DNA from: Planctomycetaceae bacterium
GTDB taxonomy: Bacteria; Planctomycetota; Planctomycetia; Planctomycetales; Planctomycetaceae
DNA length: 43,423 nt
Reading direction: 5' to 3'
NCBI GenBank assembly: GCA_041742495.1
Contig: JBGSIP010000227.1
Location: 1-43,423 of the forward strand
The notes under the pieces were generated by a model. That model was given only the letters and a program-made list of their open reading frames with translations, had not been told where the DNA came from and ran no database searches. How positions within the stretch are numbered: the stretch's first letter is position 1; each line of letters opens with the position of its first letter. Positions 7,185 through 43,423 of this stretch are shown piece by piece. The position numbers were made by a program, and so were the translations under genes.

Positions 7185-7214
7185 GAGACATTTATGGGTC
7201 AGTCATGGTACAAT
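7185..7214 (+). promoter_or_regulatory. Candidate sigma70-type promoter for alpA
   Basis: GAGACA (7185-7190), an 18-nt spacer, then TACAAT (7209-7214), 30 nt upstream of the alpA ATG. Confidence 0.3.
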
Positions 7215-7243
7215 CAGGAGTTGAATAAGTAGATAGGTCTTAT

Positions 7244-7447: not shown

Positions 7448-7540
7448 TTTCAGCTAATCGTTGCCACTCTCACCCTAATCGAGTATTGTTCCGACCGTGC
7501 ACCGCTTCTTCCCTTCACCGTCGTTTATGCCTTGCGGAGA

Positions 7541-7802: not shown

Positions 7803-7803
7803 T

Positions 7804-9006: not shown

Positions 9007-9092
9007 CGTCTTCTCAGAGAACGTGTACGCACACCGAAGTCTGCCAGCTGAGAAACGGGAAGTAACCGGGAGGGCTGCAACGACAGAGAAAC

Positions 9093-16538: not shown

Positions 16539-19221
16539 GGTCCAATCCCCTTTCGGGCTGGTTCCTGGTATTGGCCTGCTGCATCAAATGGTGTTGCTGG
16601 GCAACGGCTGCCAGTTGCTGGGCGGTCGTCTGGTGTTTTCCAAGCCGATCCGGCCCCGTCGGTTTGCCGTTCATCGATTCAGCAAGTTGCGTTGCCGACA
16701 TCGGATCATCCAGCCGCATCACCGCCTTGAGCAGTTCCGTCCGGTCGTCGGTGTATATCAGCGCCTGTTCCTTGCCGCGTGTCACGGCCACATACGCGGT
16801 CCGCTGGTAGGTCGCCGGGAAGGACTGGGAGGACAGGCCGATCATCACCTTGTCCACGGTAAGGCCCTGACTTGAGTGGCTGGTCACGACGTAACCGTGA
16901 GCGAGGTGGCCGAAATCCCGGTCGATGATCCAGCCGCGATCCACGATGATGTCGCCGCGCTTGGTGAATCCCGCGACGGTGAACAGCGACCCGTTGCTCA
17001 GGCGATGCTTGCCGTCCTTCGTCTTGCCGCCTGCCGTGATCCGCACGCGGTCGCCGACCGCCAGCGCAATCTCTCGCGGCCGGTATACCTCGAAGCGTTC
17101 GGCAAGGCCCGTCGGCGGCGTCACGCCGTCGGCCACCGTTAGCCGCGATCCTTTGGCGTGCCCTTTCGCATTTTGAAAGAACTGGAGCATGTCGCCATTC
17201 TCGTACTGTGTCGCATCGGCTTTCTGGGCTTCCGTCAGGTGCGTCGGCACCCAGGCATTGACCAGGCGTTCCTTGCCCAGCTTGTCCTGTTCCTTGAGGC
17301 CGGCACGGATGGCGGACGTGATGCGATCCGCTTCGGCGTGCGTCGGCGACACGACGAGGGCCGTCTTGTGTTCCCCGCCGCGCTTCGTTTCGGCCACCGC
17401 CGCCAGATACGCCGCCGACAACTGCTCGTAGCGTTCGGCGTCGGGGACTTCCCTGATCCAGCCGAGCTTGTCCAACTCCTCGAACGCTTCCGCCGTCCGG
17501 CCCTCGCTTAAGTCGCGGGCAGCTTTCTTGTAATCGCCTTGCTGCCGCAGGATCTCCGTGACTTCGGCCACCGGCAGCCCGGCCAGTTCTTCCAGCAGCT
17601 TGAGCGGCTCACCCGCCGTGACGCTGCGGTGTTGCCGGCGATCCCCCACGAGGATCACGCGGGCGTTGACCGCTTCGGCCACGCCAAACACCTTCAACAT
17701 GTCGCGGGAGCCAAGCTGGCTTGCCTCATCGACGAGAATGACGCCGCCCTTGACGGCTTGCTGCATCTGCTCGTCCTTGAGGAACCTGGCCACGGTGTCG
17801 GCATGGGCGAACCCTGCCTCTTCGCGGAGCACTTCCCTACTGGCCTTGACTGACTGCGCCAGCGCGGCAACCGGTCGGCCTGCTTCGGCGAGCGCTTCGC
17901 CGATCTCCTGCTCAAGGGTCGTCTTGCCGGTGCCCGCCACGCCGCGAATGACCATCACGCGGTCGCGGGAACCGAGGACGTGCTTGACAGCAGCCTTCTG
18001 CCCTTCGTTGAACCAATTGCGGGAGACGGGCCGCTTCGGATCGCCCAGCGGTCGGCAGCGTCCGCGACCATCACGGGCGAATTCGATGAGCTTCGATTCC
18101 AGCCCGAGCATTTCATTCGTGGTCACCATCCTGCGCCCGGTCACTTCGCTGGTTATCAAAGGGCGATTCCGCACTTCCTTATGCACGCCCACGACCGTGA
18201 CCGCGCCCAGCCCGCGCTTGAGCGCCTCAGTAGCGATCTTGCGTTCCGGCACCACCGCCTCACGCACGAAGCAATGCGAAATTGCATGATCGACCGCTTG
18301 CGTCTCCGCACGCTCCAACCTCGCCACTGGTTTCTCGCGGCGATGCACGGAAGCGAGCGTATTGCGTTCCTCGTCGGTGAGGCGAGCGTTCCATTCCTTG
18401 CGGAGCGATTCCCAGCCCAGTGCCTTTCCTTTTTTCTCGCGGGTTTCGGCCCCGAGTTCCGCCTTGCGGTCGGGACTGGTGATGCCTTTCTCCTCGGCAA
18501 GCTTCTCGATCAGCGCCGTGCGCCGCGAGAAGCGTTTCAGCACATCCTTGGGAATCCCGGCGATCTCGAAATCGTCCCGCTTGCGCTCCACGCCGAAGCC
18601 GATGTCCTGAAGTTTGTTGGCCAGCCGCACCCGGAACGCTGCCTGGAAATACGGTGCATCCCGCTTCAGTTCGCGGAACTGGCCCGCCTTCCAGCGTTCC
18701 TCGTCCTGGTCCCAGGTGGTGTTGAACGCGAAGACGTGCGCATGCAATTGCGGATCGGGGAGTCCGTCAACAGGCCGGGAGGTGGTGTGGATGAATTCGG
18801 CCCAAACCATGTTGCCCGTGGTGCGGTCGGTGTCCTGGCCCTTCCGGCGGACGCGCGTACGCATTTCACCCTCGATCTCACGCATCGTATCATCGACGGA
18901 TGCGCGGAAGGCATCCATGATGCCCTGGTCGCCGCTCATGGCGTACAGAAGGGAAACCGACTTGGGCACGGAGAAGGTGAAATCGTAACCAACCGTCCGT
19001 TCCGCCCGCGTCCTGACGGTGAGCGGCTCGCCCGTTTTCGGGTCGAGGTTGTCACACAACCGCTCGAAGGAGAATTTGTCTACCGTCCCGGAGAGCCCGA
19101 GCCGGGATGCGCCCTTGCCGCCCCACAAGCCGACCAGTTCCTGTCCTTCACTGTAATAATCTGCTGTAGCGTAGTAACGCTTGGCTCCAGATGCACAATC
19201 CTGTTGCGAGATTCGGATCAT
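16528..19221 (-). CDS. MobF-family (TrwC/TraI-like) conjugative relaxase fused to a RecD-like helicase
   Basis: An N-terminal Tyr pair sits in 'AKRYYATADYYSEG'. The 3-His motif is 'HTTSRPVDGLPDPQLHAHVFAFN'. The helicase part has Walker A 'GVAGTGKTT', Walker B 'VILVDEASQL' and C-terminal 'GYVVTSHSSQGLTVD'. Confidence 0.9.
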   Translation of the reverse strand: MIRISQQDCASGAKRYYATADYYSEGQELVGLWGGKGASRLGLSGTVDKFSFERLCDNLDPKTGEPLTVRTRAERTVGYDFTFSVPKSVSLLYAMSGDQGIMDAFRASVDDTMREIEGEMRTRVRRKGQDTDRTTGNMVWAEFIHTTSRPVDGLPDPQLHAHVFAFNTTWDQDEERWKAGQFRELKRDAPYFQAAFRVRLANKLQDIGFGVERKRDDFEIAGIPKDVLKRFSRRTALIEKLAEEKGITSPDRKAELGAETREKKGKALGWESLRKEWNARLTDEERNTLASVHRREKPVARLERAETQAVDHAISHCFVREAVVPERKIATEALKRGLGAVTVVGVHKEVRNRPLITSEVTGRRMVTTNEMLGLESKLIEFARDGRGRCRPLGDPKRPVSRNWFNEGQKAAVKHVLGSRDRVMVIRGVAGTGKTTLEQEIGEALAEAGRPVAALAQSVKASREVLREEAGFAHADTVARFLKDEQMQQAVKGGVILVDEASQLGSRDMLKVFGVAEAVNARVILVGDRRQHRSVTAGEPLKLLEELAGLPVAEVTEILRQQGDYKKAARDLSEGRTAEAFEELDKLGWIREVPDAERYEQLSAAYLAAVAETKRGGEHKTALVVSPTHAEADRITSAIRAGLKEQDKLGKERLVNAWVPTHLTEAQKADATQYENGDMLQFFQNAKGHAKGSRLTVADGVTPPTGLAERFEVYRPREIALAVGDRVRITAGGKTKDGKHRLSNGSLFTVAGFTKRGDIIVDRGWIIDRDFGHLAHGYVVTSHSSQGLTVDKVMIGLSSQSFPATYQRTAYVAVTRGKEQALIYTDDRTELLKAVMRLDDPMSATQLAESMNGKPTGPDRLGKHQTTAQQLAAVAQQHHLMQQANTRNQPERGLDHER

Positions 19222-25083: not shown

Positions 25084-25289
25084 TGGTAGCACCATGCAGG
25101 GCCGTCACCGCTATCCACAATCAGACGACAGGCTGAAGCAGCAGGCAAAGCCGTCCAGGGTGGAGGCGCTCCCTTGACATATGCCGAAGAAACCTCCCAA
25201 CTGGGACCAGCCCACGCTATTTCCCGACGACCCTGACGATTCCACTCGCCAGCCGAATTCAATAACAACAACCGATGAAGGAGACCAAC

Positions 25290-25607
25290 ATGCAGTACAA
25301 GACCATCGTTCTCGAACTCCTGCAACAACGGCCGGAGATGCACGAGCAACTTCGGAAGGACCGAAAGCTGCTAACGACAATGGAGAGTTACGCCAGGGAT
25401 CTGAAGAGCAGCCACGAAGCATGGAAGGAGACGCTCGGCCAGGAGAGGCCGGGCAGCGACCAGAGCCAGATCGCGAGCGAGGCCCTGGAGATGGCCCTCA
25501 AGGATTTGGAGGATCGTTTGCCCAGCGCGTCACATCCCAGCGACAACGAACCGCTCTCCCTCGACGCAGCAATGGCGTTCATCCGCAATCACACGTCGCG
25601 CGGCTGA
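25290..25607 (+). CDS. Hypothetical 105-aa helical protein
   Basis: SD GAAGGAG lies 6 nt upstream of the ATG. The composition (K/E/L-rich) is protein-like. It overlaps, out of frame, the low-complexity 5' extension of the giant ORF. Confidence 0.55.
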   Translation: MQYKTIVLELLQQRPEMHEQLRKDRKLLTTMESYARDLKSSHEAWKETLGQERPGSDQSQIASEALEMALKDLEDRLPSASHPSDNEPLSLDAAMAFIRNHTSRG

Positions 25608-25876
25608 AAGCATCGCGGAACCAGCCGAGTCTTTTTGATCCCGTCTTCGGCGATTCTCCTCCCGACACTCCAGCCCCGCCTGGGTCCATAGGCGACGGCA
25701 CTGTACTCAGCCCGCCGGGCCGTGCAAGCGGAAACCCGGTTCCCCCTGAAGGTCTCCCCCAACTTTCCGCTGGCACGGTCGCTACGCGAGCGGAGCCCCG
25801 GCTCAATGCTGAGTCCCTGGCGTGCCGTGAGGCCCCGACGGCGGGGCCGGAAACGCCAAGGGAAGGAGACCGTGCC

Positions 25877-28800
25877 ATGATGGGCACTCAGTTGAGTTTG
25901 CAGTTCGACACACCACCACCATTCATTTCTGTCAGAGAACCAGAACCGAACCGGCAATTAAAGCCGGCCCCGATCGCCAGCGGCGAGAAGTCGAAGGCCC
26001 GCGACATCATCACCGCTATCCGCACGCTGAAAGCCATCGAGCAGCAACACCGAACGGCGACACCTGACGAAAAGCAACTGCTCTCCCGCTTCGCCGGTTT
26101 CGGTCCCGTGGCACTCTCGATATTTCCCGATCCGGTCAGCGGCAGATACAAGGACGCCGGATGGCAGTCCCTGGGAGATGAGCTAAAGACGCTGCTCACC
26201 CCGGAGGAATACGACAGCGCCAAGCGGACGACCTTCAACGCCTTTTACACATCGCCGACCGTTATCGCTTCCATGCACGAAGCGATTGCCCGATTGGGCG
26301 TGCCTGATAAGGCCACTGTCCTGGAACCCGGTTGCGGTATCGGCAACTTCATGGGGCAGGGCACGCCGGGAAACCGCTTCATCGGCGTGGAATTGGACTC
26401 CATCTCCGGCCGCATCGCCAGGGCCATCCATCCCGAACACGACATCCGCATCGAGAGTTTCCGCGACACGAAGCTGCCCGAGAATCGCATTGATGCCGTG
26501 ATCGGCAACGTGCCGTTCGCTGACCTCAAGCTTGATTACCAGGGCCAGAAGCTTTCCCTGCATGACTACTTCTTCGCCAAATCCATCGACGCCCTGAAGC
26601 CCGGCGGAGTGCTGGCACTGGTTACGTCGCATTTCACACTCGACAAGCAGAACGCCGCCATCCGCGAGTACCTCGCCTCGAAGGCCGACTTCGTGGGAGC
26701 CATCCGCCTGCCATCGGATGCGTTCAAACGGGAAGGAACCGCCGTGGTGACCGACATCGTGTTTCTTCGCAAGCGGGCTCCTGGGGAGCCAGCCAATCAT
26801 GTGGACACTGATTGGTTGGGCGTGGCACCGCTAGAGATCGATGGCGCAGAGGTTCCTGTCAACCGCTACTTCCTGAACCATCCGGAGATGGTGCTTGGCA
26901 AGTGGAGCCGCAAGGACACGCTCTACGGCGGGGAAGGCTTCAGCGTCACCAGCAATGGCGATATAAGCGAGAAGCTTCGGGAAGCAGTGAGCCGCCTGCC
27001 GCGATTTGAAAGCATTCAGGCAACCACAGATCAGAAGGAAGAGACAGCACCCGCATTTATTCCACCGCCGCCCGAGCGGCATATCGGCGAAGGCAGCTTC
27101 TTCATCGGCGACGACAAGCTCATTTACCAATCCGAAGGCGGGCAGGGTGTGCCCGTTGTGTACGGTGGCACCACCCTGAAAGCAGACGGAACGCTCACCG
27201 GAAAACGCTTGGCCGCCCTCGTGGGCCTGCGGGACCGCGCCCGCCGCGTGCTGCAATCTCAGAACGAAGGCTGGCCCGAGGCGAATCGTGATGACGCACG
27301 CCGCGAACTCAATCTGGCCTACGACCGGTTCGTGGCCGCGTACGGCCCGATCAACAAGACCACCTTCGGCGAGACCGCCGACGGCAGCATGATCCGCCGG
27401 ATGCCCAATCTGGTGAAGTTCCGCGAAGACCCGGACGCCATGCTGGTCATGTCCCTGGAAGATTATGACGAGGTTACGGGGAAGGGAACGAAAGCCGCCA
27501 TCATGGCCAGGGACGTGGTGGGCAAGACTCCGCCCATCACCCATGTCCGCAGCGCCGAGGAAGGATTGCTGGTTTCCCTGAACCAAAAAGGAGCCGTGGA
27601 TCTGCCGTTCATCGGAACGCTCTACGGCAAGCAGAAAGCCGAAATCGTTGCCGAACTGGGCGAACTGATCTTTCCTGACCCGGAATCCAGAACATGGCAA
27701 ACCGCCGACGCCTATCTCTCCGGGAATGTCCGCACCAAACTCACCGCCGCCGAACACGCCGGTCCTCAATATGCCCGCAACGTCAACGCCCTGCGAAGCG
27801 TGCAGCCCGAGGACGTGCTGCCGGGAGACATCGACGCCAATCTTGGCGCACCCTGGATACCGGTGAGCGACATCCAGGCATTCGCCGCCGACCTCTTCAA
27901 GGTCGAGCTATCTTCTATCCCAGTCGCCCACCTGAAAAAAGATGCCGTCTGGAGCCTCGACGCCGGTTACGCCGCCAAGGCATCGGTTGGAGCAACGTCC
28001 GAATTTGGGACAGGTCGCGCCAACGGCACCTGGCTGCTGGACCTGGCCCTCAACATGAAATCGCCGACCATCTACGACACGATCCAGAATGGCGACCGCG
28101 AGGAGCGGGTCGTCAATCAGGAAGCGACGATGGCCGCCCGCGAGAAGCAGAAACTCATCAAGGAGCGTTTCCGTTCCTGGGTATTCTCCGATCCTGAACG
28201 CACGGAGCGTCTCGTGCGGACTTACAACGACACCTACAACAACCTCCGGCCCCGCCTGTTCGACGGCGGGCATCTCGACTTCCCCGGCATGAACCAGACG
28301 CTGACGCTTCGGCCCCACCAGAAGGATGCGGTCTGGCGTGGCATGAGCAGCGGCAACACGCTGCTGGCCCACGTCGTAGGCGCCGGCAAGACGTTCACGA
28401 TGGCCGCCACCGGCATGAAGATGAAGGAAGCCGGTCTCATCAAGAAGCCGATGTACGTCGTCCCCAACCACCTGCTGGAGCAGTTCTCCCGCGAATTCAT
28501 GCAGCTTTACCCGAACGCCAAGCTGCTGGTCGCCAGCAAGGAAGACCTTTCGCGGGATCGCCGCAAGATGCTCACCGCCAAGATCGCCAGCGGCGAATGG
28601 GACGGGATCATTGTCACGCATTCGAGTTTCGAGCGAATCGGCATGAGCCGGGATTACCAGGAGAAGTTCCTGACCGAGCAAATCGCCGAGTACGACCAAC
28701 TGCTACTGGAGCACGCTGCCGACAAGGGAGCCAACCGCAATCTCATCAAGACCATCGAGAAGCAGAAAGCAGCACGGTGCGAACGGCTGAAAGACCTGCT

Positions 28801-31033
28801 CGCCGACGACAAGAAGGATGACGGGCTGGTGTTTGATGAACTCGGCGTCGATCACGTCTTCATCGACGAAGCGCACTACTTCAAGAACCTGGAGACGCCG
28901 ACCAAGATGGAGCGCGTCGCCGGAATCCAGACCGGAGGCTCAGAGCGTGCCTTCGACGTGTACATGAAAGCCCGCTACCTCGACGAGCAGCACGCCGGCC
29001 ACGGCGTGACGTTTGCCACCGGCACTCCGATCAGCAACACGATGGTGGAGATGTACACCATGCAGCGATTCCTTGATCCCAAAGGGCTCAGGGAACGCGG
29101 GCTGGAGCATTTCGACGCATGGGCCGCCACGTTCGGCGAAGTAGTTGACACGATGGAAATCTCACCCGACGGCGCGGGTCTGCGTCCACGCAGCCGATTT
29201 GCCCGCTTCACGAACTTGCCAGAACTCCAGCAGATGTTCCGAGCGTTCTCCGATGTGCAGACGGCCGAGATGCTGAACCTGCCGCGCCCCCGCCTGCAAG
29301 GCGGAAAGCCCACCGTTGTTGCCTGCCCGATGTCCGAGGAGCAGCAAGCCCTTCAGCAAGAACTGGTCGAACGCTACGAACGCTTGCGGTCGCAAAAAGT
29401 TGACCCGCGTGTTGACAACGCACTCGCCATCACCACCGACGGACGCAAGCTGGCCACCGACGCAAGGATGCTTTCAGCCACGGCACCCGACTTCCCGGAA
29501 TCGAAAGTCAACCGCCTCGTTGAGAATGTCGCGGACACATGGAAGAAGACCGCCGCGACACGCGGCACGCAGATGATCTTCGCTGACATGGGCGTCAATC
29601 CGACCGCCTGGGGTTACTCACCGTATGACGAGATTATCACCAAGCTGGTTGCCCACGGCATTCCCCGTGACCAGATCGCCGCCATCGGCGACGCTGAATC
29701 CGACGCCAAGAAACAGGCACTCTTCGAGAGGGTCCGCAATGGTTCCGTTCGCATTCTGATCGGCAGCACGCAGAAGATGGGCACCGGCACCAACGTCCAG
29801 AAACGCCTAGTTGCGCTGCATCACCTCGACGCCCCCTGGAAGCCAGCGGAAGTCGAGCAGCGCGACGGCCGCATCCTTCGGCAGGGAAACGAAAACGAGG
29901 AAGTGGCGATCTACCGCTACGTCACCGAAGGATCATTCGACGCCTACATGTGGCAGGCACTTGAAACCAAAGCGCGGTTCATTGGCCAGGTCATCACCGG
30001 CGACAACGCCACCCGCCGCGCCGAGGACATCGGCGGCCAGGAACTCTCCTACGCCGAGGTCAAGGCGATTGCGTCGGGGAATCCAGCCGTGCTGACGCTG
30101 GCGGAAGCTGACGCCGAACTGCAACGCCTCACTCTACTCAAGAAGAACCATCTCGACGAACAATACGTCGCCCGCCGCAGCGTGCGCGACTTGCCAGCGA
30201 CCATCGCCAGCCAGAGCGAGCGACTGTCGAAGCTCACGGCAGACGAGGCGACCGCCAACGCCCGTGCCGGCGACCCAATCACCATCGCGGGCCGCACCTG
30301 GTCACGCGAAGACATACCCGAGATTCTCGGCGGTAAACTGGATGCCTTACCGAAGAACGTCCGCGACACGACCCGCGTGCCGCTTGGCAACTATCGTGGC
30401 TTACGTTTCGGCCTTGTGCTTCATCCGCAATTTCCGCCCGACGTGTACCTGGAAGGTGCGATCACCCGTCAGTCCGGCCTCTCACGCGAACACCAGGGGC
30501 CGCGTGCCGTGCTGAACGCACTGGAACGACTCGCCAGCGGTTACGGCTCTGAATGCGTCCGCGTCCAGCAAGACCTTTCCATCGCGGAAGCCCAGCTTCG
30601 CGATTACCAGGCCCGCCTTGGCAAGCCCTTCACGCATGAAACCTATCTGACTGAACTGACCAGCCTGCGCGACCAGCTCAAGGCTGGCCTTTCCAGCACA
30701 GCCCACGAGTTGGACAACGAGGAGGGTCCGAGCGCTTCCGAACTGGCCGAGAAGATCAAGGCGATCAAGGCAGCGAACAGCATCGAGGCGACGCCTCAGC
30801 GAGTCCGCCAAAAACACTCCACTGCCGAGGAACCCATCACCGCCCGCATCCGCCGCAGGGCGGAGTCAATTCCCGCATCCGAATCAGCGAGTGAAGCCGA
30901 TGCTGCACCCGAAGCAGGGTCGGCTCTGCCGCCAGAACCTTCGCCGAATTCATCTGGCAAGCCGCCGATGACGTTCCAGGAGCGTATCGCGATGGAGCGG
31001 CAACGCAAGGACCAGGAACCAAGCCTGTCTTGA
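25877..31033 (+). CDS. Giant N6-adenine DNA methyltransferase / SNF2-helicase fusion protein (phage P1 DarB-like; probable anti-restriction function)
   Basis: MTase motif I 'LEPGCGIGNF' and motif IV 'GNVPFAD'. SNF2 motifs: 'LRPHQKDAV', 'GAGKTF', 'FIDEAHYFKN', 'TGTPISN', 'HLDAPWKPAEVEQRDGRILRQGN'. The ORF is open from 25181, but I prefer ATG 25877, which has SD GGAAGGAG. Confidence 0.85.
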   Translation: MMGTQLSLQFDTPPPFISVREPEPNRQLKPAPIASGEKSKARDIITAIRTLKAIEQQHRTATPDEKQLLSRFAGFGPVALSIFPDPVSGRYKDAGWQSLGDELKTLLTPEEYDSAKRTTFNAFYTSPTVIASMHEAIARLGVPDKATVLEPGCGIGNFMGQGTPGNRFIGVELDSISGRIARAIHPEHDIRIESFRDTKLPENRIDAVIGNVPFADLKLDYQGQKLSLHDYFFAKSIDALKPGGVLALVTSHFTLDKQNAAIREYLASKADFVGAIRLPSDAFKREGTAVVTDIVFLRKRAPGEPANHVDTDWLGVAPLEIDGAEVPVNRYFLNHPEMVLGKWSRKDTLYGGEGFSVTSNGDISEKLREAVSRLPRFESIQATTDQKEETAPAFIPPPPERHIGEGSFFIGDDKLIYQSEGGQGVPVVYGGTTLKADGTLTGKRLAALVGLRDRARRVLQSQNEGWPEANRDDARRELNLAYDRFVAAYGPINKTTFGETADGSMIRRMPNLVKFREDPDAMLVMSLEDYDEVTGKGTKAAIMARDVVGKTPPITHVRSAEEGLLVSLNQKGAVDLPFIGTLYGKQKAEIVAELGELIFPDPESRTWQTADAYLSGNVRTKLTAAEHAGPQYARNVNALRSVQPEDVLPGDIDANLGAPWIPVSDIQAFAADLFKVELSSIPVAHLKKDAVWSLDAGYAAKASVGATSEFGTGRANGTWLLDLALNMKSPTIYDTIQNGDREERVVNQEATMAAREKQKLIKERFRSWVFSDPERTERLVRTYNDTYNNLRPRLFDGGHLDFPGMNQTLTLRPHQKDAVWRGMSSGNTLLAHVVGAGKTFTMAATGMKMKEAGLIKKPMYVVPNHLLEQFSREFMQLYPNAKLLVASKEDLSRDRRKMLTAKIASGEWDGIIVTHSSFERIGMSRDYQEKFLTEQIAEYDQLLLEHAADKGANRNLIKTIEKQKAARCERLKDLLADDKKDDGLVFDELGVDHVFIDEAHYFKNLETPTKMERVAGIQTGGSERAFDVYMKARYLDEQHAGHGVTFATGTPISNTMVEMYTMQRFLDPKGLRERGLEHFDAWAATFGEVVDTMEISPDGAGLRPRSRFARFTNLPELQQMFRAFSDVQTAEMLNLPRPRLQGGKPTVVACPMSEEQQALQQELVERYERLRSQKVDPRVDNALAITTDGRKLATDARMLSATAPDFPESKVNRLVENVADTWKKTAATRGTQMIFADMGVNPTAWGYSPYDEIITKLVAHGIPRDQIAAIGDAESDAKKQALFERVRNGSVRILIGSTQKMGTGTNVQKRLVALHHLDAPWKPAEVEQRDGRILRQGNENEEVAIYRYVTEGSFDAYMWQALETKARFIGQVITGDNATRRAEDIGGQELSYAEVKAIASGNPAVLTLAEADAELQRLTLLKKNHLDEQYVARRSVRDLPATIASQSERLSKLTADEATANARAGDPITIAGRTWSREDIPEILGGKLDALPKNVRDTTRVPLGNYRGLRFGLVLHPQFPPDVYLEGAITRQSGLSREHQGPRAVLNALERLASGYGSECVRVQQDLSIAEAQLRDYQARLGKPFTHETYLTELTSLRDQLKAGLSSTAHELDNEEGPSASELAEKIKAIKAANSIEATPQRVRQKHSTAEEPITARIRRRAESIPASESASEADAAPEAGSALPPEPSPNSSGKPPMTFQERIAMERQRKDQEPSLS

Positions 31034-31278: not shown

Positions 31279-31575
31279 ATGCCATTTGAGCGATCCCTGG
31301 AGATCGAACGCCGCCTTGACGATGTACTCCGCCTGATTCGCACTGGGCGGTTTTCAACGCCCATGCTGGCTGAAGAAGTGGGCGTCTCGATCCCGACGAT
31401 TTCCCGATGCGTCACGGCTTTGCGGCTGAGGGGGCACGATATCCGGGCCGAAAAGAACGAAGAGGGATGGCGCTACGTGATTGCTGGAAAGAAAAATCCG
31501 GAAACGAAACGGGCAGTGGATGCCAAAACGAAAAGTCCGTCAACGGCTTCCAAACTGAGCGGCCACGATGACTGA
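31279..31575 (+). CDS. Small winged-helix/HTH transcriptional regulator (HTH_11/DeoR-like)
   Basis: 'FSTPMLAEEVGVSIPTISRCVTALRLRGHDI' is an HTH pattern. The 3' end overlaps the SNF2 gene start by 8 nt (ATGACTGA). Confidence 0.7.
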   Translation: MPFERSLEIERRLDDVLRLIRTGRFSTPMLAEEVGVSIPTISRCVTALRLRGHDIRAEKNEEGWRYVIAGKKNPETKRAVDAKTKSPSTASKLSGHDD

Positions 31576-34450
31576 ATACCACGCCAAATACTTCGCTTAC
31601 GAGCTAACTCGGAGAGGTGCCGCCGGGTTGGATCGTTTGTCGATGTCGCTCTTTGACGCGGCGGTCGATCTCAACCCGCACCAGATCGAGGCGGCCCTTT
31701 TTGCACTTCAGTCGCCGCTGTCGAAGGGCGTCATCCTCGCCGACGAAGTCGGGCTCGGAAAAACCATCGAGGCAGGTATCGTCCTCTGCCAATCTTGGGC
31801 CGAACGCAAGCGAAAGCTGTTGGTGATATGCCCGGCATCAATCCGTAAGCAATGGGCGCTGGAACTCTCGGAGAAGTTCAACCTGCCAGCTATCGTCTTG
31901 GACGCCAAGGCGTCGCGGGATGTGCAACGGTTGGGTCGAGCACCCCTTTCCGAGAAAGCAGTGCTTGTCATGTCGTTCAATTATGCCAGTAAGATTCGTG
32001 AGCACCTGAAGGCGATCTCCTGGGACTTAGTTGTCATCGACGAAGCACATAAACTCAAGAACGCCTACCGCCCAAGCAATAAGGTCGGCCAAGGAATTCG
32101 CTGGGCCACCGAAGACTGCCGAAAACTTCTGCTGACGGCAACGCCGCTTCAGAATTCATTGGTGGAACTCTACGGGCTGTCAACGCTCATCGACGAACAC
32201 CTTTTCGGGGACATCAATTCTTTCCGTGCTCAATACACCGGCGCGGGAAGCAATCTTGAGGCGTTGAGGCAACGGCTTTCGACCTTCTGCAAACGCACCC
32301 TTCGGAATCAGGTCACCGAGTATATCCGCTATACCGCAAGACGAGCGATCACTCGCCCGTTCAAACCCAGCGACGACGAGCACGCTTTGTATGAAGCGGT
32401 TTCGGCCTTCCTCCAACGAGAAAACAGTTATGCACTCCCGCACCGACAGAGGCACTTGACCGCCCTGATTCTGCGAAAGCTCCTCGCGTCTTCTTCCCAG
32501 GCCATCGCCGCGACTCTGGATACCTTACGGGCACGCCTTGAGACGCTTCGCGATCAACAAGCGGTGAGCGATCCCGAATTCACGGAGCAATTGATAGAAG
32601 GCGAGGAAATCGAGGACGACCTTCTCGACGAAATCCTCAACGAAGATTCAGACTCTGAGGAAGACGAAACGAAGACATTGACCATCGACCGCCTGAGACT
32701 GAAAGAAGAAATTGAAGTTCTTGCTCGCCTCGCCAAATGGGCACACAGCATTGGTATCGACACCAAGACGCGCAGCTTACTCACGGCACTGGAACTCGGC
32801 TTCGAGAAGATGACTTCGTTTGGTGCGGCCAAAAAAGCGCTCATCTTCACCGAATCGCGACGCACGCAGGAGCATCTGAAAACTTTCCTTGAATCCCACG
32901 GTTATCGTGGACAGGTCGTGCTGTTCAATGGCACGAACGGCGGGCCAGAAGCGACGGCTATCTACGAGAAATGGGCGGTGGCCAACCGCGAGTCGGGCCG
33001 GGCATCCGGTTCACGGGCCGTTGACGTTCGCACGGCACTTATCGAGCATTTCCGCGACAACGCATCAATCCTGCTCGCTACCGAGGCGGCCTCCGAGGGT
33101 GTTAACCTGCAATTCTGCTCGCTGGTGGTGAATTACGACCTCCCCTGGAATCCGCAGCGTATCGAGCAGCGTATCGGCCGTTGCCACCGATACGGGCAAA
33201 AGCATGATGTTGTCGTCATCAACTTCCTGAACGAACGGAATGCAGCGGACCAGCGTGTTCTCGAATTGCTCTCCGAGAAATTCCGCCTCTTCGATGGCGT
33301 TTTCGGCGCCTCCGACGAAGTCTTAGGCTCGATTGAGTCCGGGGTCGATTTCGAGAAACGAATCCTCGCCATCTACCAGCAGTGCCGTAGCACTGAGGAG
33401 ATCGACTCTGCCTTTCGCATGTTGCAGGAGGAGATGGACGAACAAATCCGCACGCGGCTCGATGACACGCGACGTTCACTTCTCGAACACTTTGACGAAG
33501 ACGTGCATGAGCGATTGCGAGTAAAGCTGGCCGACACCAAGGCACAACTCGACCGTGTGAGCAAGCGGTTCTGGGCCGTCACACGATTCATACTGGAAGG
33601 CAAGGCCCAATTCGATGAAAAGACCTTGGCATTTCAGCTCGCTGATCCGCCACGCAATGACATCCCAATCGGTCGCTATCACTTGATTTCCAAAACACAT
33701 CCTCAAGCGACTCCCGAAATCAGCGACGATTCCGGACAGTTCCTTTACCGCCTCTCTCACCCGCTCGGTGAATTGGTCCTTGATCGAGCCAAGAGGACCG
33801 AGACGCCATCCGCCAGTATTACGTTTGACGTGAGCAATCACCCGACTCGGCTGCACGTTATTGAAGCCCTACGTGGCAAGAGCGGCTATTTGACGCTCTG
33901 CCGTCAAGTGATCGATTCTTTCGAGACAGAGGAGCATTTGCTCTTCTCAGGGTTTGACGACGACGGCAATTCGCAGGATCAGGAGACAATGGACAAGCTG
34001 TTTCAATGCTCCGGGCGTGTGGATGCTGGTTCAGAGCTTCCTAACGTCTTGACAGTCCGCTTGTCCCAAGAATCCACTCGCCATGCTGAGGCAAATATTA
34101 GCCGATCACTTGAGGCCAACAGTCGTCACTTCCAGCAGGCCAGGGAGAAGCTGGAGCACTGGGCCGACGACATGGTCCTCGCCGCCGAGAAGGCGCTGCG
34201 TGACACCAAAGAGAAGATCAAGGTGCTCCAGCGCGAGGCCCGACAGGCCGCCACATTGGCCGATCAGCACCGAATCCAGGAAGAGATTCATAAGCTGGAG
34301 AAGGTCAAAAGGCGCCAACGCCAGGACATTTTCAAGGCCGAGGACGAGATCATCGAAAAAAGAGACTCGCTGATTGAATCCCTTGAAAAGCGGCTTTCCC
34401 AGCGGACCCACACCGAAACACTTTTCACCATACGCTGGTCTGTCGTTTAA
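31568..34450 (+). CDS. SNF2-family helicase/translocase (960 aa) with a C-terminal coiled-coil
   Basis: 'LNPHQIEAA', 'ILADEVGLGKTIEAG', 'LVVIDEAHKLKN', 'LLLTATPLQNSL', 'ALIFTESRRT', 'LLATEAASEGVNLQ', 'YDLPWNPQRIEQRIGRCHRYGQ'. Confidence 0.9.
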   Translation: MTEYHAKYFAYELTRRGAAGLDRLSMSLFDAAVDLNPHQIEAALFALQSPLSKGVILADEVGLGKTIEAGIVLCQSWAERKRKLLVICPASIRKQWALELSEKFNLPAIVLDAKASRDVQRLGRAPLSEKAVLVMSFNYASKIREHLKAISWDLVVIDEAHKLKNAYRPSNKVGQGIRWATEDCRKLLLTATPLQNSLVELYGLSTLIDEHLFGDINSFRAQYTGAGSNLEALRQRLSTFCKRTLRNQVTEYIRYTARRAITRPFKPSDDEHALYEAVSAFLQRENSYALPHRQRHLTALILRKLLASSSQAIAATLDTLRARLETLRDQQAVSDPEFTEQLIEGEEIEDDLLDEILNEDSDSEEDETKTLTIDRLRLKEEIEVLARLAKWAHSIGIDTKTRSLLTALELGFEKMTSFGAAKKALIFTESRRTQEHLKTFLESHGYRGQVVLFNGTNGGPEATAIYEKWAVANRESGRASGSRAVDVRTALIEHFRDNASILLATEAASEGVNLQFCSLVVNYDLPWNPQRIEQRIGRCHRYGQKHDVVVINFLNERNAADQRVLELLSEKFRLFDGVFGASDEVLGSIESGVDFEKRILAIYQQCRSTEEIDSAFRMLQEEMDEQIRTRLDDTRRSLLEHFDEDVHERLRVKLADTKAQLDRVSKRFWAVTRFILEGKAQFDEKTLAFQLADPPRNDIPIGRYHLISKTHPQATPEISDDSGQFLYRLSHPLGELVLDRAKRTETPSASITFDVSNHPTRLHVIEALRGKSGYLTLCRQVIDSFETEEHLLFSGFDDDGNSQDQETMDKLFQCSGRVDAGSELPNVLTVRLSQESTRHAEANISRSLEANSRHFQQAREKLEHWADDMVLAAEKALRDTKEKIKVLQREARQAATLADQHRIQEEIHKLEKVKRRQRQDIFKAEDEIIEKRDSLIESLEKRLSQRTHTETLFTIRWSVV

Positions 34451-34489: not shown

Positions 34490-37400
34490 ATGAGCCAAAA
34501 ATACGAAAAACTGAAATCTCTTCTGAAGGAGTTGTTCCAGCTCGATCAGCCGGACCTCGACTTCGGTCTGTATCGCATCATGCACGCCAAGGCGGCCGAG
34601 GTCACCGCATTCCTCGAACGTGATCTGCTGCCCCAGGTGAAAGCCGAGTTTGGTCAGTACAAGACCGCCGACAAAGCCGAGCTTGAGCAGCAATTGGCAA
34701 AGGCCATTGAGCAGGCACAATCGCTCGGAGCGGACCCCGGGACGCTGCCCAAAGTCAAAGATCTGCGCGACAAGTTGAAGTCCGACGCCGTTGATATCTC
34801 CGCGCTCGAAGGCGAAGTCTACGACCACCTCATCAGCTTCTTCAGCCGTTACTACTCAGAGGGCGATTTTCTCTCCAAACGCCGCTACTCACGCGACGGC
34901 CGCTACGCTATTCCCTATGACGGCGAAGAAGTGAAACTCTATTGGGCCAACCACGACCAGTACTACATCAAAACCAGCGAATACCTCCGTGACTACGCCT
35001 TCCGACTCAGGCCGGACGACGACGCGAAACCCATGCGAGTCCACTTTCGCCTGGCCGATGCCGTCGAGGGCGAGCATGGAAACATCAAACCCCCTAACGG
35101 CAAGGATCGAGTGTTCATCCTGGCGACCGGTGCCTTTGCCTCTTTGGAGCAGGCGGAACTCAGCCTCCGCTTCGAGTTCCGCCCAGCAACTCTCACGGAC
35201 TGGCCTGAAGAAATACGACAAGGCAAAACCAAGCCACCGGCCCAGAAAGACCTGACCGACATAGCCGAGAAGCGAATGCTCACAGTCGCTGAAGCCGCCT
35301 TTTTGCCCTGGGTCGCAGAACTGGCCAAACCACATTTGAAGGCGGACGGCGAGAAGGCCGACTATAAGCGGATACGCGCGCACCTTAACCGGTACGTCGC
35401 CCGCAACACCTTCGATTACTTCATCCACAAAGATTTGGGCGCGTTTCTACGCCGCGAAATCGACTTCTACATAAAGAATGAAGTCATGCACCTGGACGAC
35501 GTAGAGAACGAGACAACTCCGCGAGTTGAGCAGTACCTCTCCAAAATAAAGGTCATCCGTCGCATCGCTGGTAAGCTCATCACGTTCCTTGCCCAACTAG
35601 AAGACTTCGAGAAGGCGATTTGGCTAAAAAAGAAATTCGCGGTCGAAACCCAGTACTGCGTAGCAGTGCGCGAAATCTCCGAGGAATTCCTGCCGACGAT
35701 CCTGGCCAATGCCGCTCAATGGGAAGAGTGGGAATCGCTGCATCACCTGTCCGATCTGACCAAAGGCGACGATGGCCTATTTGCCAAGAGGGCTAAGCTC
35801 AAGTCACCGGAGCTACTTAAAGAGAATCCATCGCTGATGATCGACACGCGGCACTTTGATGCCGACTTCACGGCTCGGTTGCTCGAAGCCCTTGGCGACC
35901 TCGAAGCCAAAACCGATGGCGTGCTCTTCCACAGCGACAATTTCCAGGCTCTCAACCTGATGCAGGCCCGCTATCGGGAGAAGGTGAAGTGTGTCTACAT
36001 AGACCCGCCTTATAACACGGACGCCTCAGCTATTCTGTATAAAAACGATTACAAGCACTCGACTTGGATTAGCCTAACTCAAAGTCGAATGTTGCTAGCT
36101 CATCAATTGATTTCCAAGTCGGGCACGCTTTGCTTCGCGATTGATGATGAAGAGGTCTGTGAAGCTCGTTTGATGCTCAAGGAACTGTTTCCGAACTTTC
36201 TCGGTGTTGCGGCTGTTCGCTCAAATCCTCAGAGCCGCAAGGCGAAGGGCACCTTATCGCCTGCACATGAATATGTGCTCTTTTATGGCAAAACCCACGA
36301 ATCCAATCCTGGGTCCTTGGAAGCAACCGACAAAAGACTCTCCCGATATCCAAAACAAGACGAGAAGGGCCGTTACGCCTGGTTGAACCTAATCCGGACG
36401 GGAAACAATGACAAACGAGAAGACCGGCCGAAACTGTTTTACCCAATTTATGTATCGTCAGACGACAAACTGCGTGTGCCTCCCATGACATGGTCTGAAA
36501 CCACTGGGGATAATGGAGAGTGGATCATCAATGAAAATCCCAAAAGCGACGAGGTCGTTGTCTATCCGATAGCTATTGCTGAAGGGGTGCAAGTGGAGAA
36601 AAGATGGCACCGAGGTGCGGATCGTGTCACCAGCGAGCCAGAGGAATATCGAATCAGAAGGAATGGTGAAGGCGCAGTAAGCATTGACTTCAAGACAAGG
36701 ATGGATGAAGAAGCCACTCCCAATACATGGTGGGACAAAAATGAGTACGCTTCTGCAAATTACGGTGCCTCGGAATTGAAGGCCTTATTCGGAAGGAAAC
36801 CGTTTGATTTTCCGAAAGCACTCGCACTTGTCAAGGATTCTATTTTGGCAGGTGATGCTGATATGCATAGCATCATCCTGGACTATTTTCCGGGTTCTGG
36901 AACGACGGGACATGCTGTTATCAATCTTAACCGCGAGGATGGGGGAGATCGCAAATTCATTCTAGTCGAGATGGCCGACTACTTTGATTCGGTGCTGCTA
37001 CCTCGACTCAAGAAAGTAGCCTTTTCCCCTGAATGGAAAGACGGGAAGCCGGCGCGATCAGCCACGACGGAGGAGACCGAGCGAGGTCCGCGCCTTTTCA
37101 AAATCATTCGCCTGGAATCGTATGAGGATACGCTCAATAACCTGGAGGTTAAACGATCCACAACCCAGCAAAGCCTTCTTGACACTACCGACGCTCAGGG
37201 AACCGACAAGCTCCGCGAGCAATACCTACTGCGCTACATGCTGAGGGTGGAAACCCGTGAAAGCCCATCGCTGCTGAACGTGGCCGCATTTAGCGATCCG
37301 ACGTTGTATCGCCTCGTGGTCAAACGTCCCGGCTCCGATGAAAGCCGGGATGTAAGTGTCGATCTCATCGAGACCTTCAACTGGCTGCTCGGCCTGACGG

Positions 37401-37776
37401 TGCAGCACATCGCCGTTCCGCATGTCTTCTCAGCACAATTCGAACGAGACAAAGAGAAGCGGCTCCGTTTGAAAGACCGCATCAAACCGGACGCGACCGG
37501 GCCATACTGGTTCCGCACGATCACCGGCACGATGCCGGATGGTCGCAAGACGCTGGTCATCTGGCGGAAACTCACTGGCAATCCGGAGGAAGACAATCTG
37601 GTTCTCGACGCATGGTTCACAAAACAGGGCTATTCGAGCAAGGACACCGAGTTTGGCCTCATATATGTCAACGGCGGAAACAACCTGGAGAACCTGAAAG
37701 CCCCCGACGACACCTGGAAGGTTCGACTTATAGAGGGTGACTTCCAGCGGCTGATGTTCGCCACGGAGGGCCAATA

Positions 37777-37777
<1 letters not shown>
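34490..37777 (+). CDS. Large (1095 aa) beta-class N6-adenine/N4-cytosine DNA methyltransferase (type III Mod-like core with long N- and C-terminal extensions)
   Basis: Motif IV '[10 protein letters not shown]' (DPPY at 36002-36013) precedes motif I '[13 protein letters not shown]' (about 36880-36915). That is the beta-class order of the N6_N4_Mtase family. Confidence 0.85.
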
Positions 37778-41055
<3,278 letters not shown>

Positions 41056-41093: not shown

Positions 41094-42404
41094 ATGACCA
41101 TGCAGATTCACGCCATTACAGACCTCCTCTCCCATGCCGGGTTTGCCGCACCCGATCTGCGCGTGCTGAATCCTAACCACGAGAACTACACGGCTCTCCT
41201 ACTTCAGCCTCAGGGCGAGATTGAAGCTGACGCAAATGGAGTACGCAATGCCGACCAGGAACTGGCACGAAAGCAATACTCAGCATTCTTAGCCGATGCA
41301 GTTGCAGAACAAGCCGCCATCGCTATTACTCCCGAATATTCAATGCCTTGGCAGGTATTCGAGGACTCCCTTCGGAACGGGGTTGTGCCAGCCCCTGGCT
41401 CGCTATGGGTGGTGGGCTGTGAAAGTGTGACCTTAGAACAACTCGGAGCGTTTAGAGACAGGGTGTCTGATATCGCCACTGTCCTCTACGAAACTCTTGC
41501 TCCGCAACCAGGGCGGTTTCTCGATCCCGTTGTATATGTTTTCTCTTCCAGGCCCGCACAGGGTGGTGATAATCTTCAGCTTGTGATTGTTGTGCAATTC
41601 AAGACATCGCCAATGGGAGACGCAGGGCATTTCGAGATAAACGGCCTTCAGACTGGAACCCGCATCTACTCCTTTGGAAACGGTACAACCCAGCTACGTC
41701 TTGCGACCCTAATCTGTTCCGACGCTTTCGCATTTCTGGATGAGCACGCGGCTGAACTCTATCATCGTACCCTGCTCATTCATATTCAACTCAACAAATC
41801 ACCCAGACAGGCCCAATATCGCCAGTATCGCGCGAAGTTCATGCAATACGATGGCGATGAGACGGAAGTGCTTTGCCTCAATTGGGCCAAAGACGTAATT
41901 GAACGGAGCGGTGACCAAAAGACGTGTTGGAACAACATTTCTGGCTCCGCGTGGTACCTCCGCCCCGACAAGTATGATGACAGTGACACGACGCTAGCCG
42001 AGAATCACAAACACGGATTGTATTATACTTGGCTTCATGACCTGCGGTGCCGTGCGTTGTTTTTCACTTATATCCCGGCAGTATTCGCAATCACGGCATC
42101 AAAGGTGGCCCACCACGGAGTCACTGCGTCAGTATCTCGCCGCCGGGGTCCAATTCTTACATCTACCCGTGTGTGGGACGACGCTTCAGCGAGTTGGATC
42201 GTGCCAACCACCGTCAATGACGGCTTTGCCGCAATCGTAGGAGAATGTGGTGACGCCGCCGCAGATATTCAAGCACTTGCCAGCACAAAGCCATTCTGTG
42301 CAGAGCGAACCTTGGCTCTATGCGCCGGTCAAATTGTCGTTCGCGGTCAGAAACAGGGCCAATTTCGCGGCGAGAATAGGGCCACGTTGTGGGTTGCGAC
42401 TTGA
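41094..42404 (+). CDS. 436-aa protein with an N-terminal carbon-nitrogen hydrolase (nitrilase superfamily)-like Glu-Lys-Cys pattern; function unknown
   Basis: E81 in 'AIAITPEYSMP', K170 in 'VIVVQFKTSP', C208 in 'LATLICSDAFAF', with nitrilase-like spacing. The ORF itself is solid, but the family assignment is by-eye motif inference only. Its stop lies about 5 nt before the presumed IS21 end. Confidence 0.5.
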   Translation: MTMQIHAITDLLSHAGFAAPDLRVLNPNHENYTALLLQPQGEIEADANGVRNADQELARKQYSAFLADAVAEQAAIAITPEYSMPWQVFEDSLRNGVVPAPGSLWVVGCESVTLEQLGAFRDRVSDIATVLYETLAPQPGRFLDPVVYVFSSRPAQGGDNLQLVIVVQFKTSPMGDAGHFEINGLQTGTRIYSFGNGTTQLRLATLICSDAFAFLDEHAAELYHRTLLIHIQLNKSPRQAQYRQYRAKFMQYDGDETEVLCLNWAKDVIERSGDQKTCWNNISGSAWYLRPDKYDDSDTTLAENHKHGLYYTWLHDLRCRALFFTYIPAVFAITASKVAHHGVTASVSRRRGPILTSTRVWDDASASWIVPTTVNDGFAAIVGECGDAAADIQALASTKPFCAERTLALCAGQIVVRGQKQGQFRGENRATLWVAT

Positions 42405-42454
42405 GATGTGGGACGCGTGAGAGAACGACTGCAGGGCGGGGCTGAGAGGTGTCG

Positions 42455-43282
42455 TCAGGCGGCGGGGCGGGGATTGGTTTTGTCGTCGCGGGCGCGGTGA
42501 GCGCGATAGGACTTGCCGGCGATGCGGAGGATGATGGCTCCGTCCACGACGCGGTCGAGCAGGGCCATCGCCAGCGGCGGGTCGCCCAGGTAGTCGCCCC
42601 AGGCTTTGAAGTCGATGTTGGTGACGAGGGCCGTCGAGCGCTGCTCGCTGCGGGCGTCGATGACCTTGTAGAGCAAGCTGGCGGCTTGCGGGGCTTCGCT
42701 CCGTTCGAGGCGGTCGAAGCCGAACTCGTCGATGATCAACAGGTCGAACTTGGCGTAGTACCTCACGCGATTGGGCAGCGTCTGGTCGGCCAGCGAGGCG
42801 CGCAGGTCGAGGAGCAGGTCGGCGCTGGTGGTATACCGCACGCGCCAGCCCAGGACACAAGCGGCGTGAGCCACTGATTGGATAATGTGACTTTTTCCGA
42901 CGCCGCTCTGTCCCGCCAGGACGAGGTTGTCCCCGCGGCGGATGAACTCGCCGGTCGCCAGTTCTTCGATGCGGGAGCGATCGATGGCTTTGGCATTGAA
43001 CTGCCAGTCGAAGGTGGCCAGCGTCTTCGGTTCACGAAAGCGGGCTTCGCGGATGCGGTGCGCGATGCTCCGTTCGCGGCGCTGGGCCGCCTGTTCGGCG
43101 ATCATCAGATGCAGGAATGCGAGGTGTGACAGCCCTTCCCGTTCGGCGCGGGCCAGCGTGGCGTCGAACGCTTCGCCGCGCAAGGGAACTTTCAAAGTGG
43201 CGAAGTCGGACAGGATCTGTTCACGCAACTCGTCAGAAGGGGGCGTCTTCGATTTCGGCGGGCGGTTCGGTCGGTGGCTCAT
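42455..43282 (-). CDS. istB: IS21-family helper ATPase IstB
   Basis: 'FDWQFNAKAIDRSRIEEL', Walker A 'LAGQSGVGKSH', Walker B 'LLIIDEFGF' and 'NIDFKAWGDYLGDPPLAMALLDRVV'. I chose the start at 'MSHRPN...' (43282). Confidence 0.9.
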   Translation of the reverse strand: MSHRPNRPPKSKTPPSDELREQILSDFATLKVPLRGEAFDATLARAEREGLSHLAFLHLMIAEQAAQRRERSIAHRIREARFREPKTLATFDWQFNAKAIDRSRIEELATGEFIRRGDNLVLAGQSGVGKSHIIQSVAHAACVLGWRVRYTTSADLLLDLRASLADQTLPNRVRYYAKFDLLIIDEFGFDRLERSEAPQAASLLYKVIDARSEQRSTALVTNIDFKAWGDYLGDPPLAMALLDRVVDGAIILRIAGKSYRAHRARDDKTNPRPAA

Positions 43283-43423
43283 CGGGGGCAGGCTCCGCGG
43301 GCAAGAGGGGTTGGTACTCGGAGGTGGGACGCGGTTGGACCGCCGCCGGATCGGCATCTCCCGGCACAGTCGGCGGCTCGTTCTCGGCCAGTACGGACCA
43401 CAGGCTCTGCGGTCGGGCCTGGC
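43233..43423 (-). CDS. istA: IS21-family transposase IstA, C-terminal tail (partial)
   Basis: Hand translation of the third minus-strand frame gives '...SLWSVLAENEPPTVPGDADPAAVQPRPTSEYQPLLPAEPAPDEPPTEPPAEIEDAPF*'. This is an acidic, Pro-rich tail ending about 50 nt inside istB, as is usual for istA/istB overlap. Confidence 0.45.
   Translation of the reverse strand, partial: QARPQSLWSVLAENEPPTVPGDADPAAVQPRPTSEYQPLLPAEPAPDEPPTEPPAEIEDAPF

Follow-up and report, generated by a model that had tools for sequence, protein, structure and literature searches.

A divergent nitrilase-type gene downstream of a type III-like restriction-modification operon in a Planctomycetaceae bacterium: disrupted copy of a probable two-gene Lamassu variant

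What is a gene with the catalytic signature of carbon-nitrogen (CN) hydrolases doing at the 3'-end of a restriction-modification (R-M) operon? The question is raised by contig JBGSIP010000227.1 of a Planctomycetaceae bacterium (assembly GCA_041742495.1), the analyzed stretch of which comprises 43,423 nucleotides and is referred to here as the window. An open reading frame (ORF) at positions 41094-42404 of the plus strand, whose translation product consists of 436 amino acids, had been described in an initial annotation as the last gene of an R-M-like operon and as a possible new partner of such systems. By sequence comparison and structural modelling it is well supported that this gene encodes a divergent nitrilase-type (Glu-Lys-Glu-Cys) domain of approximately 370 amino acids, which is predicted to be catalytic. 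The gene probably belongs to a variant of the anti-phage Lamassu/ABC-three component (ABC-3C) family, whose effector has a nitrilase fold and whose putative middle component is fused to the ATPase, and which has been disrupted in the window.

On translation, E81 was found in AIAITPEYSMP, K170 in VIVVQFKTSPMGD and C208 in LRLATLICSDAFAF, exactly where the initial annotation had placed these residues, and the spacings of 89 (E81 to K170) and 38 residues (K170 to C208) were also reproduced. The pattern exceeds chance. A loose regular expression (PE..K..C.D with those spacings) matched solely this ORF among the 22 gene-like ORFs of the window, and when shuffled versions of the protein were searched, the loose expression matched in 1.5% and a stricter E-K-E-C version in 0.06% of them. 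The stricter version includes E181, the fourth residue of the tetrad, which had been overlooked before. The codon of the predicted catalytic Glu, E81 (41334-41336, plus strand), lies in a 'TPEYS' motif that could be aligned with the LPE Glu of CN hydrolases, and that of the predicted catalytic Lys, K170 (41601-41603, plus strand), in a 'QFKT' motif. The predicted second Glu, E181, is encoded at 41634-41636 (plus strand) and aligns with the second Glu of CN hydrolases, and the predicted nucleophile C208 (41715-41717, plus strand) is part of 'LICSD', the Cys of which aligns with that of the CYD motif. Since the homologues begin with MQI..., M3 at position 41100 may be the native start, in which case all residue numbers would drop by 2.

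For structure prediction by AlphaFold2, an alignment of 91 sequences headed by the full-length relative P0002 (77% identical; its numbering is that of the window protein minus 2) was used. The high-confidence model (predicted local distance difference test, pLDDT, 93.4; predicted template modelling score, pTM, 0.91) exhibits the four-layer alpha-beta-beta-alpha sandwich of the nitrilase superfamily. A Foldseek search of the PDB with this model, a check that the initial annotation had proposed, yielded 121 matches at E≤1e-3. The best 50 of them were all members of the nitrilase superfamily (E 1e-7 to 2e-5, probability 1.0, TM(target) ~0.5), including NadE glutaminase domains, N-carbamoylputrescine amidohydrolase, Nit2, formamidase AmiF, D-carbamoylase, Lnt and archaeal nitrilases. 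Among the viral models of BFVD, the single match under 1e-3 was a cyanophage CN hydrolase. The residues of the signature occupy fitting positions in the model, with the Glu right after a strand, the Lys at the end of a beta-strand and the Cys in a strand-Cys-helix elbow. E81, K170, E181 and C208 are invariant among 34 close homologues, and they are among the 14 invariant columns found in all in an alignment of 86 divergent homologues (26-52% identical to P0002). The proposed conservation of the three residues noticed first was thus seen in both sets. H230, Q232, N263 and W264 (window numbering) also belong to the 14 columns; these additional invariant residues imply a pocket that differs from that of metabolic nitrilases.

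Sequence profile searches of the PDB with two family alignments returned nothing relevant. In a Pfam scan of the 86 divergent homologues at E≤10, PF00795 (CN_hydrolase) was the only family matched by more than one member (4/86, best E 0.014); its gathering score was not reached by the window protein, which gave no Pfam match at E≤1. An hhalign comparison of a shallow family alignment with the single YafV sequence also gave nothing. Success depended on comparing a diverse family alignment with a reference set of 12 aligned bona fide CN hydrolases, namely E. coli YafV and products of annotated, plasmid-borne genes that represent ten phyla or classes. Under these conditions the family matched the CN hydrolases with 86-88% probability (E 3-5e-6) over 221-222 columns, pairing 'dLavtPEYS' with 'dlvvLPE', E181 with the second Glu and 'LICSD' with 'iCYD', while controls with reversed alignments, the alignment of the ATPase described below and the C-terminal domain of the family did not exceed a probability of 0.8%. 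In HMMER alignments, E81 fell on the catalytic Glu in P0113, P0256 and P0140, and in P0256 the second Glu and the Cys were aligned as well. K170 fell on the catalytic Lys in the partly printed alignment of P0140, where the domain is weak and its score negative. The fold and the catalytic signature suspected at the outset are therefore borne out by the Foldseek matches, by hhalign with its controls, by the invariance of the residues and by the recurrent, if weak, matches to PF00795.

The gene in the window is not complete. A homology search revealed 409 relatives, all of them unnamed or 'hypothetical' and without a Pfam domain. Nearly all of them comprise 578-584 amino acids, and the window protein could be aligned with them over just ~94% of its own length. 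The alignments show that it tracks the family through '...ERTLALCAGQI' (amino acid ~413) and then ends with 22 unrelated residues and a stop codon. By tblastn with a full-length relative, homology stops at nucleotide ~42333-42335 (codon ~414), and no trace of the missing C-terminus was detected in the rest of the window. The 5' portion of the effector gene, codons 1 to ~414 of ~580, is thus located at 41094-42335 (plus strand), as indicated by tblastn homology, alignments and fold. It encodes the nitrilase-superfamily-like domain (amino acids ~1-370) and the first ~40 amino acids of a putative C-terminal coupling domain. The following stretch at 42336-42404 (plus strand) has no homology to family members beyond 'ALCAGQI' and is regarded as a non-native read-through tail with stop codon, derived from an insertion sequence (IS). 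Judged from the sequence, the ORF as delimited is therefore a chimera of about three quarters of the effector gene and a read-through into the IS. The C-terminal ~200 amino acids, which had been taken as one unexplained block, can now be divided: up to residue ~370 they belong to the sandwich domain, residues ~373-413 constitute the beginning of the coupling domain and residues 414-436 are IS-derived.

The inserted element is the end of an IS21-family IS, which covers 42336-43423 on the minus strand and continues past the end of the window. Its istB gene (42455-43357, minus strand) matches IstB_IS21 (PF01695, E 3e-55), and two direct repeats of 21-22 nucleotides (42340-42361 and 42364-42384) are located directly past the breakpoint. 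Ends of IS21-family elements typically carry repeated terminal binding sites. A blastn comparison of the IS region with plasmids did not define the boundary, which was set from the point where homology ends and from the position of the terminal repeats. The gene is last in its operon only because the IS and the end of the window remove what follows in every intact relative. The insertion looks recent, as the window copy still has every residue that the 34 close homologues share without exception. Since the IS took away the coupling domain and parted the gene from that of its ATPase, the window copy is most likely non-functional. The 3' gene fragment may still be present beyond the IS, together with the gene of the ATPase. 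Other relatives are disrupted, too, by an inverted ATPase gene (L030), a shortened effector gene (L031), an insertion separating the two genes (L057) or an internal deletion (L067). Frequent inactivation among relatives would fit a module that is toxic or imposes a cost. The suggestion that the gene is a low-GC swapped-in module was rejected. The count of 27/60 G and C residues at 41581-41640 was correct, but the GC content of the whole gene (53.2%) is close to that of the four operon genes (53.3-56.6%), so there is no compositional anomaly.

To which system, then, do the intact members of the family belong? A search of 1.84 billion cluster representatives identified 749 family clusters at 50% identity, throughout annotated as 'hypothetical', without a Pfam domain and with an intact length of ~580 amino acids. 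A scan of 185,579 species genomes provided 51 loci. They are distributed over more than eight bacterial phyla (Planctomycetota, Acidobacteriota, Nitrospirota, Alpha-, Beta-, Gamma- and Deltaproteobacteria, Verrucomicrobiota, Elusimicrobia, Actinomycetota and Candidatus Obscuribacter) and also occur in archaea, namely in Methanolobus profundi and in metagenome-assembled genomes (MAGs) of a Methanosarcinaceae and a Bathyarchaeota member. This patchy phyletic distribution suggests horizontal transfer. On the long contigs examined, the effector gene is always followed by a gene for a protein of 1,015-1,042 amino acids (SMC_N/AAA_23/AAA_15), with a 4-nt overlap (ATGA). Both genes are intact in 32 loci, and in 32/32 of these the ATPase gene starts 4 nt ahead of the effector stop, which suggests translational coupling. 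The other loci represent contig ends, frameshifts or insertions with ATPase fragments, barring L031, in whose case no ATPase was detected beside the shortened effector gene, the above-mentioned L030, and L070, which gave a match of just 21 residues. The obligate partner of the effector is thus a Rad50/LmuB-like ATP-binding cassette (ABC) ATPase of ~1,020 amino acids. Its Walker A (GxNGxGKT) and ABC signature (StGQRaA) motifs are invariant, and so is a single CPxC motif in the middle of the protein, a zinc hook of the Rad50/SbcC type within a protein that also possesses a long coiled coil. Two LmuB models were the only PADLOC families that scored best in 32/32 ATPases (best E 4.5e-38). In 25 of the 32 proteins, residues ~50-115 matched PF20289, 'ABC-three component system Middle Component 1' (best E 3.5e-7), while a separate middle-component gene was found in none of the intact two-gene loci. 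Past this N-terminal extension, ~830 amino acids of the ATPase remain.

The pair of effector and ATPase genes lives in defence islands, often appended to the 3'-end of R-M-type operons. In the window and in L001, L003 and L004/L005, genes for an SNF2 helicase and type III-like Mod and Res proteins are located directly upstream on the same strand, and on the short contigs L021 and L024, Res directly precedes the effector gene. In L030 and L048, Res matches of no more than 52-77 residues were found immediately upstream, L020 contains a Res remnant of 54 residues, and the gaps between Res and the effector gene measure 6-44 nt. It is this arrangement that favours the effector as a dedicated subunit of an SNF2-Mod-Res (type III-like or DISARM-like) system, both acting jointly on DNA or nucleotides. 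Res is located upstream in only 8/51 loci, however, three of these being short C-terminal fragments, so the co-occurrence with SNF2/Mod/Res homologues, for which the initial annotation had recommended a search, is not obligate. Instead, the pair follows BrxL of a bacteriophage exclusion (BREX) system in 2/51 loci (L002 and L026; a weaker BrxL match is located ~0.6 kb upstream in L065), type I R-M genes in L029, a type II methyltransferase (MTase) gene in L027 and a MkoA-like gene in L039, where a PglX-like MTase gene is present further upstream. For L006, no defence gene adjoining the pair was found. Moreover, two unrelated Mod/Res families accompany the pair. As the ATPase is the sole invariant neighbour and all other contexts vary, effector and ATPase constitute an independent module. 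It is unlikely that the effector is an R-M subunit, and this idea, under which the gene had been introduced, was given up.

Among the remaining loci, two contain additional Lamassu-type genes in the neighbourhood, a LmuA-like protein in L068 and a second LmuB-like ATPase in the archaeal locus L045. The latter (5162-9429, minus strand, Methanosarcinaceae MAG) belongs to a module in opposite orientation with an 888-amino-acid LmuB/mad3-like ATPase and an unannotated protein of 534 amino acids. Two tandem Lamassu-like systems may thus exist in one archaeon.

The architecture of the pair resembles that of Lamassu. ABC-3C is the earlier name of type II Lamassu, in which the middle components correspond to LmuC and the C-terminal domain (CTD) families to the C-terminal domain of LmuA (10.1101/2025.06.23.660979). 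In solved Lamassu complexes, LmuA is bound as an inactive monomer to the coiled coils of LmuB, and sensing of DNA ends leads to its release and to the formation of an active tetramer (PMC12663957; 10.1101/2025.06.23.660979). The family resembles these systems in an effector composed of an N-terminal enzymatic-type and a C-terminal coupling domain, whose gene precedes that of a coiled-coil Rad50/structural maintenance of chromosomes (SMC)-like ATPase. LmuB is the best PADLOC match of this ATPase, most of the ATPases contain a candidate middle-component-1-like region and the genes are located among defence genes. The single CxxC hook is shared with long Lamassu systems (LmuB ~800 amino acids), which have kept it as a feature of an SbcCD-like ancestor (PMC12663957). 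The C-terminal domain of the effector (residues ~373-566) forms an alpha/beta domain of ~200 amino acids, which was confidently predicted in the full-length model and reached a pLDDT of 73.7 when modelled by itself. Its position and architecture suggest an equivalence to the CTD of LmuA. What separates the family from known Lamassu systems is its nitrilase-fold effector, as the published effectors comprise Cap4, Mrr, PDDEXK, Sir2, hydrolase, protease, phosphoesterase, FMO, HNH, SMEK and lipase proteins (10.1101/2022.05.11.491447; PMC12663957; 10.1101/2025.06.23.660979). Furthermore, the putative middle component is not encoded separately but fused N-terminally to the ATPase, resulting in two genes and an ATPase of ~1,020 amino acids, the C-terminal domain of the effector is unlike known CTD families or solved LmuA, and the Walker B motif contains DD. 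In the literature searched, to which the founding ABC-3C paper did not belong, no Lamassu system with a nitrilase effector was found.

Several observations weigh against the assignment to Lamassu or against the nitrilase-type domain itself. PADLOC LmuA models matched neither the window protein nor a full-length relative, and the scores of the ATPases with the LmuB models were moderate. The matches to the middle component PF20289 were mostly under its gathering score of 27.3 bits. All 32 partner ATPases (from loci L020-L069, e.g. that of L022, 11737-14784) have a Walker B motif reading 'DDP', thus DD and not DE, which may cause slow or regulated ATP hydrolysis. The C-terminal domain of the effector has no significant PDB neighbour, the solved Lamassu LmuA included (best E 0.24), and it matches no Pfam family, ABC-3C CTD families included. 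By tblastn, the gene of the partner ATPase was not found within the window. Concerning the catalytic domain, the TM-scores of the Foldseek matches were just ~0.5 with root-mean-square deviations of 6-7 Å, the window protein had no Pfam, PADLOC or NCBIfam match at E≤1, and hhalign placed K170 one column away from the catalytic Lys.

The Rad50-like partner leads to another possible interpretation, namely a DNA-processing complex similar to SbcCD or Mre11-Rad50, in which the sandwich domain would be a nuclease or phosphoesterase with DNA as its substrate and not an amidase. The zinc hook of the ATPase, the proposal that Lamassu is derived from SbcCD (PMC12663957) and faint BFVD matches to SbcD and calcineurin-like phosphoesterases (E 0.3) agree with it. 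By contrast, the 50 best PDB matches belong without exception to the nitrilase superfamily, the E-K-E-C residues are invariant and aligned to catalytic positions, and inspection of the 14 invariant residues did not reveal an Asp/His pattern of the metallophosphoesterase type. Such a function is quite unlikely.

The initial annotation had regarded a CN hydrolase in a defence context as unprecedented. There is a precedent, since the DRT1/UG5 reverse transcriptases (RTs) carry nitrilase effectors (PMC13275509, PMC9122126), and in the literature searched, nitrilase effectors were reported for such RT-based systems only. The nitrilase effector of DRT1 is active only as a tetramer, with ATP, GTP or NAD+ as suggested substrates, and nitrilase activity in general has been described as requiring homo-oligomeric assembly (PMC13275509). 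What the family has in common with these class 3 UG/Abi RT-nitrilases is a nitrilase domain with the tetrad as the presumed effector of abortive infection (PMC13275509, PMC9122126, PMC13436386), and a control through the oligomeric state is plausible here, too. The systems differ in their sensor or regulator, which is an SMC-like ABC ATPase in the family and protein-primed DNA synthesis in DRT1; no RT domain was detected in the effector or in its conserved neighbour. The nitrilase-like domain of the family is also far more divergent, remaining under the Pfam thresholds. As nitrilase domains mediate the oligomerization of DRT1 (PMC13275509), it is conceivable that the domain of the family is a catalytically dead scaffold for oligomerization or sensing and that toxicity resides elsewhere, e.g. 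in the C-terminal domain, for which weak matches to endonuclease folds (PD-(D/E)xK) were obtained. However, these matches were not significant (E≥0.24, probability <0.4), and the four residues of the tetrad are invariant at 26-52% identity while most other positions vary. A pseudoenzyme is therefore to be considered very unlikely.

Metabolic nitrilases (Nit2/YafV omega-amidase, N-carbamoylputrescine amidohydrolase, AmiF, the NadE glutaminase domain and Lnt) share with the family the four-layer fold and the order of the E-K-E-C tetrad with similar spacing and secondary-structure context. On the other hand, identities amount to ~10-15% only, insertions extend the domain of the family to ~370 amino acids compared to ~260-300, and the family is distinguished by its extra C-terminal domain and by its obligate ATPase partner. 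That the gene product is a common enzyme of metabolism (an amidase, a nitrilase or an Lnt-like acyltransferase) whose gene lies near defence genes by chance is highly improbable in spite of this common fold and tetrad, given that no match reached family thresholds, that an extra domain of ~200 amino acids and the overlap with the gene of a coiled-coil ABC ATPase are constant, that the neighbours are defence genes and mobile elements and that the phyletic distribution is patchy. ABC-ATPase-based modules that recurrently occur in or appended to R-M-type operons are also known from PrrC/RloC (10.1101/2024.01.29.577857). Unlike these, the family has a separate effector and a long coiled coil bearing a zinc hook, it lacks an anticodon-nuclease domain, and its gene pair is also found without any R-M.

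The genes preceding the effector gene in the window are the type III Res-like helicase/endonuclease gene at 37777-41055 (PADLOC REase_III PDLC03654, E 4e-219), the type III Mod-like N6/N4 DNA methyltransferase gene at 34490-37777 (PADLOC MTase_III, E 4e-192; Pfam N6_N4_Mtase) and the SNF2 helicase gene at 31568-34450, all on the plus strand. A small gene (31279-31575, plus strand), overlapping the start of the SNF2 gene by 8 nt, encodes a helix-turn-helix (HTH) protein of 98 amino acids (HTH_11, E 6e-5; weak matches of the WYL/CasR/mad1 type), which is a candidate regulator of the R-M-like operon. The SNF2 helicases of the window, L001, L003 and L004 are 44-46% identical and DrmD_b-like, remaining under the NCBIfam cut-off. 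They are combined with different Mod and Res proteins, a Mod of 1,095 amino acids and the PDLC03654 Res in the window, a Mod of ~630 amino acids and a PDLC03647 Res in L001, L003 and L004. Variable inserted genes lie in between (GmrSD_N in L003, PLD in L004). These observations point to a modular architecture of the SNF2 and type III-like systems.

Further upstream, the window contains a gene at 25181-31033 (plus strand) for a protein of 1,950 amino acids, a fusion of a DNA methyltransferase region with an SNF2-type helicase, which gave weak PADLOC matches to mad2 and DrmD. The first ~250 amino acids of this protein are of low complexity and rich in Pro, Gly and Ser; the gene is typical cargo of conjugative elements. 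Genes for a serine recombinase (666-2195, minus strand), a type IV coupling protein similar to TraG/VirD4 (3886-5424, minus strand), a tyrosine integrase (7804-9006, plus strand) and a TrwC relaxase-helicase (16528-19221, minus strand) are present as well. Due to this set of mobility genes, the defence cluster appears to be carried by an integrative conjugative element or a plasmid. A protein with a phage tail-collar domain, encoded beside a beta-helix (NosD-like) protein at 9093-11465 (minus strand), and a Gram-negative porin gene (13839-15113, minus strand) look like a tail-fibre-like cassette within the mobile element.

How could the intact module work? Starting from the fold, the conserved tetrad, the truncation, the obligate ATPase partner and the defence-island context described above, we infer a defence function of the family and, by analogy with the solved Lamassu complexes and DRT1, a mode of action that includes sequestration and release, oligomerization and a class of substrate. 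The ATPase dimer would keep the effector as an inactive monomer via the C-terminal domain of the latter. Once the complex senses ends of phage DNA or intermediates of its replication, the effector would be released and would oligomerize. Cys208 would then attack a C-N bond of the amide or nitrile type in an essential metabolite or protein, which would lead to growth arrest or abortive infection. More tentatively, the family might represent a new biochemical class of Lamassu effectors, a C-N hydrolase with Cys nucleophile that is freed by a DNA-end-sensing SMC-like ATPase and attacks an essential molecule bearing amide or amine groups. NAD+, a nucleotide or a protein side chain may be examples of such targets. 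In view of its frequent location at the end of R-M and BREX operons, the pair could serve as a second-line guard once these systems are overwhelmed or inhibited.

Since the copy in the window is an IS-disrupted remnant, its local importance is low. The significance lies in the family. Effectors with a nitrilase fold have nearly not been reported in prokaryotic immunity, the sole precedent being the RT-nitrilase DRT1/UG5 (PMC13275509), and the family places the catalytic chemistry of nitrilases under an entirely different sensor, an SMC-like ATPase of the Lamassu type. It thereby makes the target of nitrilase-type immune effectors a directly testable question, and the same applies to the Lamassu logic of sequestering, releasing and oligomerizing an effector that is not a nuclease. 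For models used to detect Lamassu systems, the family contributes a compact architecture, in which ATPase and putative middle component are parts of one protein, as well as a new class of effectors. Finally, if the family is compared with the nitrilase of DRT1, it could become apparent which substrate such immune effectors attack.

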